Shown here one piece after another: positions 4,897-35,244 of a stretch of 64,000 bases of DNA; within the stretch, counting starts at the first letter, position 1; each line of letters starts with the position of its first letter. Below the pieces are notes generated by a model that was not told the origin of the DNA, did not search any database, and saw only the letters and a program-made list of their open reading frames with translations. The stretch is from a virus (Duplodnaviria; Caudoviricetes), in IMG/VR virus record IMGVR_UViG_3300019371_000265, positions 32,001 to 96,000 of that record, one strand, 5' to 3'. The position numbers were made by a program, and so were the translations under genes.

Positions 4897-5091
4897 CTAA
4901 TTTCCCAATATCCAATCAAGCCACATACAATAGCAATTACTGGCTGATTTCGTTCCTGTGTAGATCTTATCGCAATCCTCTTTTAATCCACATAGTTCAC
5001 AGGTTGCACAATCGCTCACCATATCCGCTATTTCTTCAGGAGATTTAATATTTTTCATACAATTTACCTCACTTAATTTAAATTCCATCAA
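4897..5091 (-). CDS. Small Cys-rich hypothetical protein
   Basis: CxxCxxC cluster; bounded by repeat sites. Confidence 0.55.
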   Translation of the reverse strand: MMEFKLSEVNCMKNIKSPEEIADMVSDCATCELCGLKEDCDKIYTGTKSASNCYCMWLDWILGN

Positions 5092-5205
5092 TCAACAATT
5101 TTACTTATTATTTAATAACAATGTCCTGTGCTCCCACCACCATCACAATGACCTGCCATCTGCCTACTCAGCCTAACTACCATTCTTAAAAAATTAGTAT
5201 ACATT

Positions 5206-6060
5206 TTATACCCATCCTTTCATCAATTCACCATTCTCATAAACTACACCATACTTATTTTTCGGTTTTCTCAGAGCATTACCAATTACTTTAGCCCCAT
5301 CTCCCAAGGAAGCCTGTAATGTTTCCTCACACATAAAGCACGATCTTTTTAATAAAACAGGAGTCTTAAATCCATCTAATATTTCATTCATATTCAGATA
5401 AGTTTGGCAACCACATGAATACGGTGATCCTAACGTTATTCCGAATACCTTTTCAAATGATACAAATACATCTTTTCCATGTTGAATCTCAGATAGCTTA
5501 ATACTATTGAATCCCATTTCATCATAATGTATCAGGCAATTAGAAATGTCGTCTTTTGTATAGAGAAACGGTTTAACAATATTTAAATTTATTCTGATTT
5601 TCTCCTTGTATGGAAGCGATGCGTAAAACTTTTGCCTATCATATTTAGATTTAGTTCTTCTAATTTCATCGGCAACGTCTTCCTGATAGTGCTGCACCGA
5701 CAAATTAATTCCGTCAAGGTGCTCGACCAGCTCCATGAATTTGTCGTATTCGTCGTAGCATATTTTCGGAACCGATGTGGTTACGTAAAGTTTTAGCGAT
5801 GTGTTATCTTTAATTCTCTTAACGCAATCTAATAGTTCATCGAGATATAAACATGGCTCTCCTCCAAGAAACAACACATCATCTAATCCATCTTGATTAT
5901 CAATTATCGTTTGCGCTATTGCATTAACATCTGGCTTCGATATGCTCATTCCTTCATAACATTTATCAATGCAGTGTGCGCAATTATTATCACAGGCACT
6001 TGTAAAATGTACATCAAACGAATTATATATCCCGTCACAGCAATTACATTTAAGTTTCAT
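5206..6060 (-). CDS. Radical SAM protein
   Basis: CDNNCAHC (CxxxCxxC) and GGEP motifs. Confidence 0.9.
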   Translation of the reverse strand: MKLKCNCCDGIYNSFDVHFTSACDNNCAHCIDKCYEGMSISKPDVNAIAQTIIDNQDGLDDVLFLGGEPCLYLDELLDCVKRIKDNTSLKLYVTTSVPKICYDEYDKFMELVEHLDGINLSVQHYQEDVADEIRRTKSKYDRQKFYASLPYKEKIRINLNIVKPFLYTKDDISNCLIHYDEMGFNSIKLSEIQHGKDVFVSFEKVFGITLGSPYSCGCQTYLNMNEILDGFKTPVLLKRSCFMCEETLQASLGDGAKVIGNALRKPKNKYGVVYENGELMKGWV

Positions 6061-6114
6061 TTTCTCTCCTTCTCCATCAAATTTTGGATTGACTTACTTA
6101 TTTGGACTTTTGGT

Positions 6115-12295: not shown

Positions 12296-12367
12296 CAGGG
12301 CTAGTTGGATTTGAACCAACGAATGCAGGAGTCAAAGTCCTGTGCCTTACCGCTTGGCGATAGCCCT
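12296..12367 (-). tRNA. tRNA-Gln (TTG)
   Basis: Cloverleaf: acceptor agggcta/tagccct, anticodon arm cagga-ctTTGac-tcctg, T-arm gttgg-ttcaaat-ccaac. Confidence 0.95.
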
Positions 12368-24786: not shown

Positions 24787-24882
24787 TTAATTTAATTGGT
24801 TTATTCCCACTATAAAAGCCACTAGAAACTTGTTCTAATGGCTTCAAACTGTTAATCAAAGTACTATTTGACCGTAATTATG

Positions 24883-25158
24883 TTATATTACGCAGACACC
24901 ATATAAACGAAGCTGAATTCCGTTTATTTTGATATCGATGTCTAATAAATCATCTTCTGTTTTAGAAATATAATTTATTAAATATTCAAATTGATTCCTA
25001 TAAATATCTGCTATATCTTCTTGATCCTGAGTAATGTGTTTCCGGTAAGAGTCTCCAACAATTCGGTCAATACAATCTCTCTTTTTAATTGCCAGATTTA
25101 TTTTTCTTGCTAACTTATTGTGCTGTGTAATAAGTGTTCTCAATTCTTTTTCGTTCAT
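24883..25158 (-). CDS. Hypothetical protein
   Basis: AAGGAGG RBS. Confidence 0.65.
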   Translation of the reverse strand: MNEKELRTLITQHNKLARKINLAIKKRDCIDRIVGDSYRKHITQDQEDIADIYRNQFEYLINYISKTEDDLLDIDIKINGIQLRLYGVCVI

Positions 25159-27771: not shown

Positions 27772-28431
27772 CTAAGCTACATTCTCACATTGACTTCTTA
27801 TTACTTTTTTCCCATTACCGTTTGACTCCATTCTTACTGGGAGAATGCAACAAATCCCAATTGATGTTTGAATGAAAATAGGACTTGTTTCTTTTCCGGA
27901 GTAATAGATTTCAGCTTCTTCCCCATCATTGATAATACTAAAAGCCTGTTCTAAAATTCCAAACTTAAAATATGCGTTTTCAAAATACCACACATATGAA
28001 AAATCATTTCCAGATCCGACTTCCTTCTTATTGAATTTATAGCCTTGGCTTTTTGCTTCTGCTAAAACTGTATTGAGATTTATCATTTTATTTTTATATC
28101 CAGAATAAGAAAGAAGTTTGTCAACTTTGTAATAGTTGTCATTCGAATTATCATACTCGGCAATTTCCCCGATAGATTCTTTTGTTAAGGCGATAGAATA
28201 TCCATCAATAAATGAGTAATAATCCTCGCCTTGATAATTTATCTTACAAGGTTTCTGTAAAGATTCGTTGGTATTTTCTTGAAACTTGAAATATTTCTTC
28301 ATGGCTGCATAGCGCTTTTTTGCATCAGGAATAGTTTTTATTCCATCTTGAAATATTTCATCCTGAAGCATGGTTTTTAGTTCTTCCGTTTTACCACTGT
28401 TTAGCATTTCTAATATTTTTGTGTTCTGCAT
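27772..28431 (-). CDS. Hypothetical protein, C-terminus reminiscent of a sliding-clamp domain
   Basis: FIDGYSIAL...SPIFI...ILPVR. Confidence 0.55.
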   Translation of the reverse strand: MQNTKILEMLNSGKTEELKTMLQDEIFQDGIKTIPDAKKRYAAMKKYFKFQENTNESLQKPCKINYQGEDYYSFIDGYSIALTKESIGEIAEYDNSNDNYYKVDKLLSYSGYKNKMINLNTVLAEAKSQGYKFNKKEVGSGNDFSYVWYFENAYFKFGILEQAFSIINDGEEAEIYYSGKETSPIFIQTSIGICCILPVRMESNGNGKKVIRSQCENVA

Positions 28432-28513
28432 TTATATATCCTCCATAATTTAATTTGTTTTACTAAAATAGGCTTATATCCTGTGACGGATACAAGCCCG
28501 TAAAATTCGGTTT

Positions 28514-28747
28514 TTATCTGATATTCACCGATACCCATCTTTTTGCAGAAGCTAATGATTTGCAAGTTTTTACAATTATTATTGAACTATCATTTTCTCC
28601 TTTGTCATATTCTATTTCAAATCCATCATTCGATTCTGATATCCAGACGTATTTACCATATCTTTCACTATTAATTTCTTTTACCCAACTAGTAGGTGTT
28701 CCCCATTCAGTATCACAATCGTGAACTATTTCCCATGTTTTTTTCAT
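28514..28747 (-). CDS. Hypothetical phage protein
   Basis: Bounded by repeat sites. Confidence 0.65.
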   Translation of the reverse strand: MKKTWEIVHDCDTEWGTPTSWVKEINSERYGKYVWISESNDGFEIEYDKGENDSSIIIVKTCKSLASAKRWVSVNIR

Positions 28748-28775: not shown

Positions 28776-29048
28776 TTAAGCCACGTTTTTTATCATGTTG
28801 GAATATTCCGTATTATCCCATGTAAACGTACAATTTTTATACACGTCTTCCATGTCGATTTTCATTGCATCAAAACTTGTATAGCGTATGCATTTTCTAA
28901 TACCATAAGCAGTTATATAATCCATTGTACCGCCCTGAACGCTGTATAACTCTTTACTATAAATATAACCAAAGCAGTCACGATCCACTTTAAAGCTTGC
29001 GTAATGTGGCTTTCCGTTAACTGTTCCAATTTTTATTAATTTTTCCAT
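28776..29048 (-). CDS. Hypothetical protein
   Basis: AGGAGG RBS; stop inside repeat site. Confidence 0.65.
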   Translation of the reverse strand: MEKLIKIGTVNGKPHYASFKVDRDCFGYIYSKELYSVQGGTMDYITAYGIRKCIRYTSFDAMKIDMEDVYKNCTFTWDNTEYSNMIKNVA

Positions 29049-29062
29049 GTTTTAAATCCTCC

Positions 29063-29245
29063 TTACCTTTCCCAATAATATCCAGATCCGTCCAATAAAG
29101 TAATTTGTACACCCTCTGTGTCTGCCTGAATATCTGCAACCTGATTCATGTCAACCATGTCTCTGTTACCAAATCTACCAAATAAAAAAGCACTTATAAC
29201 AAGTGCGGTTGTAATGATCGCATATTTGATTTTTCTCATTGCCAT
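29063..29245 (-). CDS. Small membrane-anchored protein
   Basis: N-terminal TM segment. Confidence 0.6.
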   Translation of the reverse strand: MAMRKIKYAIITTALVISAFLFGRFGNRDMVDMNQVADIQADTEGVQITLLDGSGYYWER

Positions 29246-29254
29246 ATCCTCCGT

Positions 29255-29521
29255 TTAAAAGTTAAGAATCGTACCGCTTCTGTGTAACTCCTGCAAACCC
29301 GTATAACCCGTTTCTGCGTTCTCAAATACCAATGTTTTAGAACTGATTTTAAAGTTTGGCGATATGCTGTTTAATACTTTACTACAAGTCTTCGCTGACA
29401 ACGTAGGCATGTTGCGGAAGTAGAAACTTGACTCGTATGTATCCCTTGCGTTGTACGTGCCGATTAACTGCTTCTTACCTATTGTGTAGATATTTACCTT
29501 CATAACTGCACCTTCTTTCAT
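29255..29521 (-). CDS. Hypothetical protein
   Basis: ORF track. Confidence 0.6.
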   Translation of the reverse strand: MKEGAVMKVNIYTIGKKQLIGTYNARDTYESSFYFRNMPTLSAKTCSKVLNSISPNFKISSKTLVFENAETGYTGLQELHRSGTILNF

Positions 29522-29536
29522 GGATATTTATACGTT

Positions 29537-29743
29537 TTATTGAATATTTACACTTGTAAGTATGTCATACATCAAATTATAATCTTTCATGCTTATATAT
29601 CCTTTATCTAAAGCCATTTCAATTTCACAGAAAAGAACGTTAAAATCCTCTTTTCTTGCATTGTTTACCGCCTTAACAAGTTCATTTTTGTATCCTGCTA
29701 TCACCATTTCAATTCTTTTTTCTACACATCTTGCCTTTATCAT
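29537..29743 (-). CDS. Hypothetical protein
   Basis: AAGGAGG RBS. Confidence 0.65.
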   Translation of the reverse strand: MIKARCVEKRIEMVIAGYKNELVKAVNNARKEDFNVLFCEIEMALDKGYISMKDYNLMYDILTSVNIQ

Positions 29744-29769
29744 TGTAAAATCCTCCTTGCTTTATTAAG

Positions 29770-30476
29770 TACTCATACGAACAATAAACCAATGATTCCA
29801 AAAATAAGAAATTCACTACATATTAAAGATTGTGTAGCAGAGCCTCTCCTGATGAGTAGTTGCCAAGAGCCTTAATCATTGTTCCTTCCATACGTCTTAG
29901 ATATGTTTGGTCTATATATTTTCTCGCATGATAAATAATAAAATCGTGTTACTGTCTGCCGTTTTATATTGGTTGCCTATGACTCATAGGACTGTTACGG
30001 TTGTTCGTTCTGTTTTGGAATTACCCATAGACTGTATGGGATTTTAGAAGTGTTTCGTTCAGGAATGTGCTAGCACCTTCACTAGAAGTGTTTTATATAT
30101 TTGTATCCCGCTTTGTCGCTACCTCTTCAGTCTGTCAGTCTGAAGCCTTATAGCGGTTTTGACTATGTAAGTATAGTCCGTCTGACATTTTACCCGTCCA
30201 TTTTCCGTTATGAGTAAGGTGTGTCAACCTACAACTTTTTCTGGCAAGTTGCCTGACTCCTATTTTGTTCAACTGCCCCATATGGACACACGTTGAACTT
30301 TAGGAAGTCAACCTTTATGATACACATACTTTTTAGGATTTATTTATCTGACCTCATATCCCTCTGCCCTTGCGTAGCTATTGTTAGGGTAATGGCTGAT
30401 ATTACACCAATAAACCTGTAACATAGGTAACACTACTCCAATTACTCCAGATAATACCGTTATTACATATGTGTAT
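29770..30476 (-). ncRNA. Candidate large structured ncRNA (~700 nt)
   Basis: No ORF >=60 aa; at least 10 nested helices including long-range pairs (see findings); strand tentative. Confidence 0.6.
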
Positions 30477-30640
30477 TGTCATTGTGCTTGTCGTGCCGTT
30501 CAATCAGGGATTACATGTGGGAACAAATGTTTCGGATTGAGTTTCCGGTGAAATGTGATAGAATGATTTTGACGTTATCTATACGCTTCACATTTGTTCT
30601 GGGAGTGGCAGGAAGTTTGAGGCTTCCCGCCGTTTGGTGA

Positions 30641-30742
30641 TTAACTTATGTATTCCAGATACTCGGATTCCGTTGCAAATAGTTGGTAGCTGTTATTGAC
30701 GTAACCCATGTAACCGGAAGCAACATAGTAGCCTTTAGGCAT
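30641..30742 (-). CDS. 33-aa peptide MPKGYYVASGYMGYVNNSYQLFATESEYLEYIS (not in track)
   Basis: GGGAGGTGA RBS, ATG, clean stop. Confidence 0.65.
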   Translation of the reverse strand: MPKGYYVASGYMGYVNNSYQLFATESEYLEYIS

Positions 30743-30890
30743 TCATATCACCTCCCATATGTAATTTTGGTTGAGTCTGACAGTTGGTAGCTGTTGGACT
30801 CTTTTCCGTTCTATGGTGGAAACAAGCGTTTCACTTGTTGATTGGTCTATTTGCTTTGATGCTACAGGCTCGCCCTGATAGACCGTTATT

Positions 30891-31049
30891 TCATTCTTCC
30901 CAAATACCGCTTATACTGTCTATGGTGTAGCCTTTCTTTTTGAAATGAGATTGCACCTTCTTTTGCGTACACTCTTGGCTACAGTAAAACCTATGATACG
31001 TTGGCTCACCTTCTGAAACAGTTGTCACTGTGTAATAATATCTTGTCAT
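30891..31049 (-). CDS. 52-aa hypothetical protein (not in track)
   Basis: AAGGAGG RBS; MTRYYYTV... Confidence 0.55.
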   Translation of the reverse strand: MTRYYYTVTTVSEGEPTYHRFYCSQECTQKKVQSHFKKKGYTIDSISGIWEE

Positions 31050-31132
31050 TTTAAATCCCTCCTTATTTAATTTGTAATAGCCTGTGTGGGAATTGCACCC
31101 ACCCCCATGATGTTCTACGGGTAAGACTTGAG

Positions 31133-31321
31133 TTAAGGCTTAATGTTTAGGTATGGCTTAATGTTGATTGTGTCGGAAATGTCGGACAGTTTGGAACAAA
31201 GAACGTTTTCTATTTCCTCATTGATGTTTACAGGAAATGCGAGTGATTTGAATACCTTCTTGCACTTCTTTACAATCTCGTCTTGGATTGCTTGCGGTAG
31301 CTGACATACGTATACTGCCAT
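31133..31321 (-). CDS. Hypothetical protein
   Basis: AAGGAGG RBS. Confidence 0.65.
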   Translation of the reverse strand: MAVYVCQLPQAIQDEIVKKCKKVFKSLAFPVNINEEIENVLCSKLSDISDTINIKPYLNIKP

Positions 31322-31334
31322 GATGGAAACCTCC

Positions 31335-31628
31335 TTAACATGTTTTTAAAAACACTCTTTCGGAAAATTTGTATTTTCCTGTTTCGTCGTTTAAAGGATA
31401 GTAAAACACTTGACATTCCCCGTCTGTTTCAATTAATCGCTTACGTGCAATTTTCTTAATCTCATTAAGGCTGTCGGCATAACCTAGAGTTTCTTTCCCG
31501 TCATATAAATCTACGACCTTAAATTTCTTATTTTCCATATGCAATCCTCCTTTAATAAGTGATTGTGAAAATAAATAATCAACACCTATGTAGCAATCGC
31601 CACCTTTTAGCCTCAACCTAAATGACAC
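31335..31628 (-). CDS. Hypothetical protein (likely start MENKK)
   Basis: AGGAGG before internal ATG. Confidence 0.6.
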   Translation of the reverse strand: MSFRLRLKGGDCYIGVDYLFSQSLIKGGLHMENKKFKVVDLYDGKETLGYADSLNEIKKIARKRLIETDGECQVFYYPLNDETGKYKFSERVFLKTC

Positions 31629-31789
31629 AATGATTTAGGAATGCAAATTTTAAATACAAGATTTTGTATTTACGTCCTAGCAGTTTATAAGGCTTCACCG
31701 TCCGCAAGTTTCATATTGATTATTTAATTTTGAAATGCCTAGTCAGGACTTGACACCTGACTGAACGTTTGGCGTTTAGGCTTGTAGTT

Positions 31790-32017
31790 CTATTCAACAA
31801 TTTCTGTAAAATAATTTTCCAGTACAACTTTATCGCCTATTTGTAATTGGTCTTTGCTTACTGTTGAAATACCTCTAACAGAATTATCTTTCTTGCTGAA
31901 TGTATTAGATTCCATTTCCATAATTTCATTAATAGTAATTGTCCTCATATGATTACCGCCTTTCGATTGACTTGTTTGTGTGTATTTGTATCTCTTAACT
32001 TGATATAAGTATACCAT
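31790..32017 (-). CDS. First gene of leftward early operon (likely start MRTIT)
   Basis: Downstream of promoter at 32008-32036. Confidence 0.55.
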   Translation of the reverse strand: MVYLYQVKRYKYTQTSQSKGGNHMRTITINEIMEMESNTFSKKDNSVRGISTVSKDQLQIGDKVVLENYFTEIVE

Positions 32018-32036
32018 ATTGCTTTACTTTAGTCAA
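32008..32036 (-). promoter_or_regulatory. Major leftward SigA promoter
   Basis: TTGACT-17-TATACT, extended -10; divergent from XRE gene; repeated TACTTT boxes nearby. Confidence 0.75.
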
Positions 32037-32123
32037 TACTTTTATTGTACTTTATAAAAACAATTTACTTTTGTATTCTGATATGATATACTGAAAGACT
32101 ACCAACGAAAGGAGTAATATACC

Positions 32124-32330
32124 ATGAATGAATTAGCATGTATTGTGAGTGACTATATTGACCGTAAAGGCATTAAGAAGCAACACATAGCGGATAGTAT
32201 TGGATTGACCAAACAAGGCTTATATGGCTTAATGAGGAAGAAACAATTCGGAGTGGCTGAAGCTAATCGGATATTGAATGCTATTGACTGTCAATTGATG
32301 ATTGGCATAGTACCAATGGACAAAGAGTAA
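32124..32330 (+). CDS. XRE-family HTH regulator (Cro/CI-like)
   Basis: KGIKKQHIADSIGLTKQGLY HTH; AAGGAG RBS. Confidence 0.8.
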   Translation: MNELACIVSDYIDRKGIKKQHIADSIGLTKQGLYGLMRKKQFGVAEANRILNAIDCQLMIGIVPMDKE

Positions 32331-32371
32331 TGTTTGACTTATATGGCTGTCATATGGTGCGTCTGACGAAC

Positions 32372-32424
32372 AGAACATTTGTTTGTCTGGGATAATAATA
32401 TCATAGTGGAAATGTGATTGTCAA
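32372..32424 (-). promoter_or_regulatory. LexA(DinR)-like box with leftward promoter
   Basis: AGAACATTTGTTTG 32372-32385; TTGACA-18-TATTAT 32424-32395. Confidence 0.55.
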
Positions 32425-32758
32425 TAGAGGGAAATAAAACGCTTAATATCTATAAATGGATATTATTTATTGATGAATGAAACTATAATATGTGGTTATA
32501 GATTGATGTATCTATATAAGATATGGTTATGAGTTGGGATTGAGCGTGGAATGGTGATGGTGAAATGGATCTGAATGAATATATAAGATGTATTTATGTG
32601 TGACTGGATTATTATAAGTTATGATTATGATTAGATTACGTTGTGATTACAACGGAAATGGTGATTCATAGTGATGTAATATAGATATGACTAGTGGAAT
32701 ATAGTTCACAATTGAACTATTATGGTGCAGATGTGTCATACTATATTACATATAGCAT

Positions 32759-32864
32759 TGTGGATATCTTTGTGGATTATTTGTTGATATGTGGATAAGT
32801 ATGTGGATAAGTATATATTATACAGCGTATAGTATTGTGGATAGCTAGGAATAATTGTGGATAA
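32759..32864. repeat. DnaA-box cluster
   Basis: Perfect TGTGGATAA at 32790, 32802, 32856; near matches at 32759, 32771, 32782, 32836; all co-oriented. Confidence 0.75.
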
Positions 32865-33856
32865 CTTTAATTCAGTTGTACACAACCAAATATATCCGAA
32901 CGATTTTATATGTCTGACAACTCGCTCCATTATCAATCCACCTGACACAATATTTTGACCACTATATCAGGAATTACTACCAATATTATCACCTGATTTA
33001 AGCCATTCACAACGTTCTTTTATGATGGAAAACCACGTTACCATGAAACAATGCCCATAGGTGGGGGATATTTTACATTTGAACCGGACTAATACCAGGT
33101 CAAAAGTCGTCTATCTATTCCACGCACACCTCACCTATAATTTTCCATTATTGTCAGATAACTCACCATCAAATTTACCCAAATACTTCGGATATACCTT
33201 CGAGCAGTACCCATATTTAAGCCAAAAAATGAATTGTGTCTCACCTCACACAATTTAAAATGACCACTCAAACACCCAACAAATCCCATAGATAAGCCAG
33301 ATTCTCGAACCCGACCACTTTTTACATTATCCACCAGATCTGCTAAATAATTAATTCAGAAATATTACTTCTCATACACCCAACAAACGTAACTACAACA
33401 AGCGTTTCTTCCATGTTTTAGATCATAATTTCAACCTCTCTCCCGAACCCTGGCTATTTTAATTTTAATACAACTCACTTCACCAAGTTAAACTAAATTG
33501 TACACAAAATGATACACAATATTACTGAATCATGCCTCCAGCATCAAGCACTTCCTATATATAAGCCAAAAATAAATGTGTTAAAATTTATACATCTACA
33601 GACACCTCTCAGCAGCTATATATATCACCCATATAAATCTAATATCCCATCTAATTACCACTCTCTCATTACCATAATACTCACAAAGCGTTATATGACA
33701 CGTAAATCGTCTTAACCTCTCATTGGCACATTTATCCACTGAATCTATTTTGAACGGAATATGAGTATCATATGACGGTCAAACAACTATATTCTTCTTA
33801 TGTCTATATAACGCCAGTTCAGCAGCAAGAATATAGGTGTAAAAATTAATTTTAAT

Positions 33857-33929
33857 AGTTTGAAATAAAATGTTGACATGGTGATATATGGGTGCTATAC
33901 TATGGATAGGTAATAGATGGAAATAAAAT
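33857..33929 (+). promoter_or_regulatory. Major rightward SigA promoter flanked by two operator boxes
   Basis: AGTTTGAAATAAAAT 33857; TTGACA-17-TATACT 33873-33901; AGATGGAAATAAAAT 33915. Confidence 0.8.
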
Positions 33930-34019
33930 TTAGCAAGGAGGTATGGGTATGATTACATTCATAGATAACAGCATCTACAGACAGGTACTCTACTGAAAAA
34001 TATTCAACTATACATATAA

Positions 34020-34051
34020 GGTATTTGGCGATACCAGTTAAAACAGGACTT
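34020..34051 (+). promoter_or_regulatory. UUGGCG hairpin + AAACAGGACUU motif
   Basis: ggtat-ttggcg-atacc-agtta-aaacaggactt. Confidence 0.7.
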
Positions 34052-34225
34052 GAAGTTTGTATCAGATTAATAATCCAGATAAAATGTAACAGAAAATTAT
34101 GTAAGGAAAATATAGATGATAAAGGTGTTTTTCTGCGAAGATTTAACGTGAGTTAAGTCGAAGCAATAAGTACTCTTTTTATATATATTCTTTCTTTACA
34201 GGGGACTGTAAAAATTAATGGTGAA

Positions 34226-34268
34226 AATGTCACTGTCTAACACCAAAATTACCTCAGACAGTGACATT
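34226..34268. repeat. 13-bp perfect inverted repeat upstream of putative initiator
   Basis: aatgtcactgtct...agacagtgacatt. Confidence 0.7.
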
Positions 34269-34440
34269 AAAACGTACTATGGAAATTTTATAAGGCAAAG
34301 GAGATGGAATTTTTATTGAAGAAAAAAGTAAGGACAAAGGATAATCTAGTTTCAGTCCTAGATATTTGTAGCTATGAGTGGAAGTTTAAATTATTACAAA
34401 AGGAATACACGTCTCCTATTAATGGGAAGGTGAATGAGCC

Positions 34441-35244
34441 TTGCAGTTCGTAAAAGTACCAAGGGAACTAATTTATGCAAGCACAGTTAGTGAGAAGCGA
34501 GCTTCATGTTTCTCCTACCTGATATTTAATTCTACTCTTCAAGACACGGTTGCTTACAGCGCAAAACAAATAATAACGTGGTGTGGATTTAAGCCAAACT
34601 GGAATCGCAGTAAAACCAAAGCAAACATATACGATAAATTCTTAGACTGTATGACCTGGATATACCAAAATGGATACATCTTAAATTTTGAAGATACTGA
34701 ATTTACCGGAAACAACTACTGTTACTCACTTCTCAATACAGATAAAATGTTTCCATCAGATAATTTTGGAATAATTTATGATTTTGAAATTGAGAAAATA
34801 AAGAATTACAAATCAAAATACAGGACTCTCACTCAAAGCACTATATTGCTTATACTCTCATACATAAGAGTTAATCTATGGAAGCGGAGCGCTAATTTAG
34901 AATTTCAGGAAGAAAAGTTAAAAAAAGAAAAGCCTGAAATATGCAATAAACAAATATTGGAAATATCAAATGACATTGGGATTTCAGAAAGATTAATTTC
35001 TCGCTCCATAGATATTTTGGTCGAGTTAGACATTATTGACATGTCACCTATGCCACGATTCCAAGACGAACTGGGGAACTGGCACACTGAAGATAGCATA
35101 TTTGTGAATAAATATAAGTTCATAAGAAACGAACATGGAGTAATTATAAAAGATAACTCCTATGATTATGAAAGTGAATTAAGTAATGGAATCGATTTTA
35201 TTAGAAAACGAAAATATGTTAGTAGAAAATTTTATCAAAAATAA
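34441..35244 (+). CDS. Putative replication initiator / winged-helix DNA-binding protein
   Basis: ISNDIGISERLISRSIDILVELDII wHTH; near DnaA boxes and inverted repeat. Confidence 0.55.
   Translation: MQFVKVPRELIYASTVSEKRASCFSYLIFNSTLQDTVAYSAKQIITWCGFKPNWNRSKTKANIYDKFLDCMTWIYQNGYILNFEDTEFTGNNYCYSLLNTDKMFPSDNFGIIYDFEIEKIKNYKSKYRTLTQSTILLILSYIRVNLWKRSANLEFQEEKLKKEKPEICNKQILEISNDIGISERLISRSIDILVELDIIDMSPMPRFQDELGNWHTEDSIFVNKYKFIRNEHGVIIKDNSYDYESELSNGIDFIRKRKYVSRKFYQK

Follow-up and report, generated by a model that had tools for sequence, protein, structure and literature searches.

Does the gene-free stretch that heads a long, leftward, co-directional early array in this phage hold one large structured RNA, or several elements lying side by side? 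The window analysed here is a stretch of 64,000 nucleotides (positions 32,001 to 96,000) of IMG/VR virus record IMGVR_UViG_3300019371_000265, a 126-kb record classed as a provirus; its genes lie on the minus strand across 1-29743 and on the plus strand from about 34.4 kb on. A first-pass annotation, made from the letters alone, had noted many complementary pairs in an ORF-free stretch at 29770-30476 and had proposed an ornate non-coding RNA of about 700 nt, belonging to a class such as ROOL or GOLLD or to a new one, with a processive antiterminator RNA as a further reading. Our comparison with related phages points to a different answer: the stretch holds new, comparatively supported RNA motifs, not the proposed 700-nt ornate RNA.

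The phage and its early operon

The segment 36342-39335 encodes a 997-aa homolog of the SPbeta YonO RNA polymerase (37.7% identity, 80% of length, E 6e-86), a protein that Enterocloster phages also match, and Lacrimispora sp. HJ-01 (NZ_CP173277.1; locus L145) holds a near-syntenic prophage. The YonO homolog and the near-syntenic prophage identify the source as a temperate phage of the SPbeta-like kind, with an RNA polymerase of the YonO type, whose host probably belongs to the Lachnospiraceae. The minus strand has promoter-like sites at 32424 and 32036, so that the gene-free stretch lies about 2-2.6 kb downstream on the same strand, near the head of the operon as had been proposed. A terminator scan of 29000-35000 gave 4 terminator-like sites vs 2.5 expected; one of them is on the sense strand, inside a gene, and none bounds the gene-free stretch. 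The nearest tRNA genes, at 12296 and 46591, are not adjacent to it, and the G+C content reaches 0.405 in the 30001-31000 bin as compared with about 0.28-0.37 across the arm.

The stretch is bordered by a 33-codon gene at 30641-30742 on one side and by the start codon of the next gene, at 29743, on the other. Between 29743 and 30641 no sense-strand ORF exceeds 48 aa, and no ORF on the opposite strand exceeds 54 aa. The small ORFs match no Pfam family, and their single PHROG match (E 0.008), to a 46-aa plus-strand ORF, was treated as chance. This ORF has no tblastn match among cultured phages, and 14 of its 46 residues are different in its counterpart in G001, the closest relative, the substitutions being almost all amino-acid-changing; since so many residues have changed at a DNA change of only about 12%, it seems to be under no coding constraint. 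Coding readings of all the small ORFs were ruled out by the Pfam and PHROG results, and 29700-30950 has no DNA match among cultured phages. The gene-free stretch is genuine non-coding sequence, and the earlier statement that it lacks ORFs stands, with no supported gene across 29744-30640.

The stretch and its surroundings can be divided into the following features.

29744-30640, minus strand: non-coding intercistronic stretch (ORF lists, no Pfam family, raised G+C)
29761-29942, minus strand: B element, a 182-nt extended hairpin (RNAalifold, covariance model, single-sequence folds)
29945-30059, minus strand: linker with two small hairpins, kept only in the closest relative, G001
30104-30160, minus strand: H1 motif, with conserved flanks and a covarying inner stem
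30161-30310, minus strand: cluster of four tight hairpins (30161-78, 30183-226, 30232-51 and 30254-310)
30316-30489, minus strand: module closed by the 9-bp helix 30320-28/30468-76, recurring in one metagenome contig
30510-30640, minus strand: 3' flank of the small gene, conserved and lying just beyond the stretch first noted (alignments)
30641-30742, minus strand: 33-codon gene with a strong ribosome-binding site (tblastn conservation)
30775-30890, minus strand: conserved junction block with three hairpins; the gene upstream of it is a different one in each of three phages

A mosaic of exchangeable modules

A DNA search of 25 terminase relatives recovered the region in the closest one only, G001, whose terminase is identical. 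G001 keeps 30510-30890 at 85% and 29761-30059 at 88% identity, and in place of 30060-30510 it carries an HTH gene of the XRE type, followed by a consensus promoter and an unrelated 470-nt non-coding leader. The same replacement is seen in G026, where only 29761-29993 of the window's stretch is kept and where the 470-nt leader is about 70% identical to that of G001, with near-invariant blocks. The promoter at the start of this leader is of the sigma-A type in both phages (TTGACA, 17 nt, TATAAT or TATACT, with TG). Both leaders (L081 2190-2680 (+); L083 8292-8780 (-)) run into the B element, and neither has an Rfam match; they make a further candidate for a structured leader. A third leader type of about 750 nt is carried by G027, L096-L099, L142, L143 and L145, G027 keeping pieces of the region other than those in G026. 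This leader, conserved in seven or eight phages or prophages, consists of at least 8 serial hairpins; of its 97 consensus pairs, 21 show compensatory changes, and several of its blocks are invariant across seven relatives; its coordinates are, for example, 3443-4207 in L099 and 5372-6135 in L145, and it was also located in L096, L097, L098, L142, L143 and L085. All three leader types precede the same B stalk and share sequence only in H1 and the B stalk, and at this locus every relative has 0.7-1 kb free of genes.

The smaller pieces behave in the same piecemeal manner. The linker 29945-30059 is about 88% identical to that of G001, with hairpin 30024-40 lost there, and is absent from G026 and the other relatives. 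On a 9.6-kb unrelated metagenome contig (run X4), 30325-30489 and 29783-29945 are both present, separated by other DNA, and a 22-mer from 30316-30489 has no exact match in IMG/VR. A metagenome scan with a 62-aa neighbour protein gave two short contigs only; among the sequencing runs, the whole stretch was present only in the probable source sample, and the others held small conserved parts, all as contigs, so that a part left uncovered there carries no weight as evidence. A relative's 201-nt RNA-library contig over 30518-30707 lies outside the stretch and is not proof of transcription.

Since its modules are kept or replaced independently in relatives, the stretch is not one evolutionary unit, and the idea of a single unit of about 700 nt is contradicted by parts that occur independently of each other. 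The stretch is best described as a series of RNA modules, each folding locally and each recombining on its own between related phages, not as one globular RNA.

The B element

One module, B, is present in every relative, directly upstream of the ribosome-binding site of the next gene. Its predicted closing stalk of roughly 27 bp is A/U-rich (29936-42/29761-67, 29924-31/29773-80 and 29907-19/29781-92), the tip of the hairpin lies near 29851, and its 3' end is separated from the start codon by 17 nt that include AAGGAGG. The distance from the end of B to the start codon is always about 17-40 nt across relatives. The downstream gene itself encodes a P22-type antirepressor in L099 (and in L097, by ORF translation), a protein of ~300 aa without a Pfam family in L145, L096 and G026, and a small protein in the remaining phages.

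The alignments available for the locus are small, with 4-7 sequences each. For B, a plain MAFFT alignment of 4 sequences, not fitted to any model and with one sequence only 77% identical, gave an RNAalifold consensus that pairs 95% of cells, with double changes at 8 of its 57 pairs, a count reached by at most 2 of 500 shuffles, with slid controls giving 0-3. The covariance model built from this alignment (R1) finds exactly one copy of B per genome, at the same locus; a second match in G027, at E 0.38, is chance-level. R1 also recovers two more divergent copies that are alike in the stalk only, for a total of 6 records, and the resulting six-sequence alignment has double changes in 14 of 60 pairs, a count that is biased because the alignment was fitted to R1. 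B elements of a second interior type were not recovered by R1 with its filters off and were located by arm motifs and alignment; among these, compensatory double changes are seen in 17 of 69 pairs. Altogether, the arm motifs place B in 11 phage or prophage sequences, including the prophage of Lacrimispora sp. HJ-01 (L145, roughly 5870-6110), and 11/11 homologs, 182-246 nt in length, fold singly into a domain closed by the same arms. Inside this stalk the interior comes in at least three unrelated versions, and the apical loop sequence is highly conserved.

The recurrent G-U pairs of B fit the sense strand only, and the z-score of the fold of 29758-29945 against dinucleotide shuffles, the measure used throughout, is -2.0 on the minus (sense) strand and -0.2 on the plus (antisense) strand, with -3.15 and -2.89 in two relatives. 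The assignment to the sense strand is drawn from these G-U pairs and strand z-scores, and B can be regarded, on its pattern of substitutions, as an RNA structure under selection on that strand. A MITE-like mobile inverted-repeat element was also considered and was ruled out, B being single copy at one locus in every genome searched.

H1 and the remaining modules

In H1 a purine-rich internal loop separates the outer helix (30152-56/30108-12) from an inner stem-loop (30140-45/30125-30) that varies in sequence. H1 was found in eight sequences, namely the window, L096-L099, L142, L143 and L145. The outer helix is invariant among them, and the inner stem occurs in three sequence versions, all of which pair, so that 4 of 12 pairs covary. 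Like B, H1 shows the marks of selection for pairing in the sense-strand RNA, and the two are RNA motifs with comparative support and no Rfam match.

The hairpin cluster 30161-30310 has no BLAST match in any relative compared. Together with H1 it folds well on either strand (30095-30315: z -3.2 minus, -3.4 plus), and the module next to it gives z +0.5 on the minus and -2.3 on the plus strand (30316-30480). Because there is almost no comparative evidence across 30161-30489, that segment could be neutral spacer. It is mainly to this segment that one further reading applies, in which the inverted repeats act at the DNA level, in recombination junctions, protein binding or replication, or in which 30060-30510 is a decaying spacer without function. 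The perfect palindromes of 30095-30315, which fold equally well on both strands, the better antisense fold of 30316-30480 and the lack of a homolog for 30161-30310 are all consistent with it, as are the conserved blocks that sit exactly at the boundaries where the neighbouring genes of these phages differ. However, the compensatory changes of B and H1 and their one-strand G-U pairs point to pairing in RNA, and B, a single copy at a fixed locus, is unlike a mobile inverted-repeat element. We thus consider a DNA-level or neutral explanation to be quite improbable.

Folding statistics, family searches and the case for a single large RNA

The earlier expectation of a fold better than dinucleotide shuffles fails for the two halves of the stretch (29755-30060, z -0.40; 30060-30510, z -0.88) and is borne out at 30095-30315, at z about -3.2. 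The z-scores of 30095-30315 fall in the extreme tail of the background of the same arm, where 148 windows of 200 nt have a mean z of -0.05 and an sd of 1.19, with 2 below -3. The strongest nearby fold is 30500-30895, outside the stretch (z -5.29, 0 of 100 shuffles as good). Elsewhere in the early arm, the 200-nt windows 24801-25000 and 28401-28600 (-) gave z -5.5 and -3.7 in the background scan. Centroid and consensus folds consist of serial local hairpins, without supported multiway junctions or long-range closing helices.

Family searches gave no match in or near the stretch when the whole window was scanned against Rfam at gathering score, nothing in 29000-31500 at E<=10, and nothing in 1-34500 at E<=1, ROOL, GOLLD, OLE, raiA and group I/II introns included; nor did the leaders at four relatives' loci match any Rfam family at E<=1. 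Membership in ROOL, GOLLD, OLE, raiA or an intron family, as had been suggested, is thus without a match even at E<=10.

All 14 complementary pairs that had been listed are present in the letters, 13 of them perfect and 30254-62/30301-10 only with a one-base bulge. Their standing among relatives differs from helix to helix. Helix 30125-30/30140-45, the inner stem of H1, is backed by covariation. Helices 29790-97/29874-81 and 29777-84/30001-08 are broken in relatives and incompatible with the covariation-supported B hairpin, and the possible pseudoknot 29770-76/29852-58 is likewise disrupted in relatives and clashes with the same hairpin. Helix 30024-29/30035-40 is lost in G001, and helix 30117-21/30151-55 is specific to the window, the relatives being able to form only the neighbouring CCGCU/AGCGG helix. 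For 30320-28/30468-76 and 30344-50/30448-54, the bases are unchanged in one metagenome contig (which leaves 30320-30324 uncovered), a result that is uninformative either way. What survives of the ornate structure is the selected sense-strand structure in B and H1, while most of the long-range helices do not; the earlier observation is partly confirmed, and its interpretation partly supported.

It could still be argued that the whole leader of 0.75-1.1 kb, ending in B, is one functional RNA of a new large structured class that would, perhaps like ROOL and GOLLD, act in trans or form an assembly, and that the window holds a divergent variant of it. Such an RNA would account for the 0.7-1 kb that is gene-free at the locus in every relative, for the high conservation of the ~750-nt leader in seven relatives, with its 21 compensatory pairs in 97, for the sigma-A-type promoter right at the start of the 470-nt leader in G001 and G026, and for the raised G+C in an A+T-rich genome. 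It would be difficult to reconcile, however, with three leader types that have no common sequence beyond H1 and the B stalk, with modules that are found independently of one another, and with helices that are almost all local and serial and form no supported multiway junctions; moreover, the whole-stretch fold is no better than shuffles, and there is neither a bounding terminator nor an Rfam match. On balance, we think it unlikely that the leader is a single large RNA.

The small gene and the upstream junction

The 33-codon gene next to the stretch codes for a product whose amino acids are conserved at 20 loci (tblastn), with in-frame indels and often two paralogs per phage, and its DNA differs from that of G001 by five synonymous and four conservative changes. 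The protein belongs to no Pfam or PHROG family, and the Atlas has only unnamed clusters of 33-35 aa. This conservation argues that ORF 30641-30742 is a real gene of a conserved small-protein family. The gene lies within 30500-30895, whose RNA fold is the strongest in the vicinity (z -5.29). In its 3' flank, hairpin 30604-30632 keeps pairing through several changes in G001, and the anti-SD segments that flank this hairpin, after the stop codon, are predicted to pair with the gene's own ribosome-binding site. A type I toxin-antitoxin reading was considered because of the sequestered ribosome-binding site and a nearby plus-strand terminator-like hairpin, and was not adopted because the peptide is polar and aromatic rather than hydrophobic. 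A short way upstream of the gene, the antisense strand has at 30773-30801 (+) a 13-bp hairpin followed by a T-run, as in an intrinsic terminator, and a promoter-like site at 30537-30564 (+) could yield an antisense RNA of ~230 nt over the gene. A 13-nt direct repeat, ACAGCTACCAACT (minus), occurs around 30685-30697 and 30786-30798 and is conserved in relatives; one copy is inside the small gene and the other in the loop region of the hairpin upstream.

Three unrelated small genes end before the junction block 30775-30890, at 30891-31049 in the window, at 1242-1499 in L081 and at 2846-3097 in L085. Since three unrelated genes end just before the same block, the block suggests a boundary for gene exchange.

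Proposed function

What, then, might these modules do? The reading that we favor, and to which we would give an even chance of being correct, is that the stretch acts in cis as a modular, structured, intercistronic RNA of the early operon, in which the B stalk is a processing or stabilising site recognised by a double-strand-specific, RNase III-type activity. The stretch would be transcribed as the sense-strand part of a long early operon transcript, and the B stalk would be the site of RNase III-type processing. Cleavage there would separate the long structured leader from the downstream cistron, leaving the latter with a short leader that carries a strong ribosome-binding site, and the interior of B might be released as a stable RNA of 130-200 nt. 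H1 and the other hairpins could serve as stability, folding or protein-binding elements of the leader. The 8+12 bp plus a 7-bp helix predicted for the stalk supply the about two near-continuous helical turns expected of an RNase III stalk. RNA cutting within this transcript is also plausible because the same operon in relatives carries twister-P5 ribozymes. These matches, above the Rfam gathering score, are at 5078-5145 (+) in L085 and 5986-6054 (+) in L099, in the early operon and on the same strand, just under 1 kb downstream of a small membrane-protein gene ('GYYWER'); in the window's early arm, covariance models of self-cleaving ribozymes had no match. Three points tell against a processing site. 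The apical conservation of B far exceeds what a mere stalk would need; an element found once per genome, always at the same locus, looks more like a specific regulator than a generic site of processing; and the thermodynamic signal of B in the window is modest, at z -2.0.

In another reading, the stretch is a processive antiterminator RNA like put or EAR, in which the nascent RNA would modify the host RNA polymerase in cis and let it pass the terminators of the 30-kb early array. A sense-strand element about 2-2.6 kb past promoter-like sites, at the head of a co-directional array, would be suitably placed for this, it is structured, single copy and strongly conserved in its loop sequence, and EAR likewise sits between cistrons. 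Yet the promoters are separated from the element by several genes, which antitermination would leave uncovered. In addition, no Rfam family is matched, the interior of B is swapped among unrelated versions where the known antiterminator RNAs need a specific fold, and in 29000-35000 there is one sense-strand terminator-like site, which lies within a gene. Antitermination therefore seems to us very doubtful, the least probable of the functions weighed here.

A bolder form of the processing idea can also be envisioned, in which SPbeta-like phages of the Lachnospiraceae share an undescribed modular leader of 0.75-1.1 kb, with at least three interchangeable versions that always end in the B domain, this domain being excised as a stable regulatory or anti-host RNA. 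We put this forward as a speculation with a small but real chance of being right. Both B and H1 are testable in a cultured host, Lacrimispora sp. HJ-01.

Comparison with known systems

ROOL and GOLLD are large ornate RNAs of Firmicute prophages. The stretch resembles them in being large, gene-free, enriched in G+C and rich in hairpins in what would be a Firmicute phage, and differs in having no covariance-model match, helices that are serial and local, parts that are exchanged independently and no adjacent tRNA gene. The ROOL architecture of 16 helices and five multiway junctions (PMC12191101) is not seen in the folds of the stretch. The lesson is a more general one: gene-free DNA that is dense in hairpins can be made up of RNA cassettes exchanged one by one, and caution is warranted before it is read as a single ornate RNA.

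The antiterminator RNAs, put of HK022 and EAR of Bacillus, are about 70-120 nt, and EAR is an intercistronic RNA. They share with our stretch, as modelled here, the character of a cis-acting structured RNA near the head of a long operon, in the case of EAR also between cistrons; they differ in being much smaller, and the stretch has no family match and a variable interior.

The T7 R sites are RNase III processing hairpins of phage early polycistronic mRNA. For the early mRNA of Bacillus phage SP82, such sites are described by Panganiban & Whiteley (1983), as cited in PMC4838370. Like these, B would be an extended irregular hairpin of about 20 bp or more, intercistronic and on the sense strand of an early phage operon, with a ribosome-binding site following closely. 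It is longer (182-246 nt), single copy, with a swappable structured interior and a conserved apex, and the likeness drawn here is one of description. A second parallel is provided by the stalks of stable-RNA precursors (rRNA, scRNA), in which distant 5' and 3' arms pair so that a long stalk closes a structured domain; stalk-type processing by Bs-RNase III is described for the scRNA precursor of B. subtilis in PMC1935012. B has this design but sits in an mRNA context, not in a stable-RNA gene. Should the enclosed B domain prove to be stable as an RNA, phages would gain a new non-coding RNA, and if the B stalk is a processing site, the picture of early mRNA processing drawn from T7 and SP82 would extend to many phages of the gut and of digesters.
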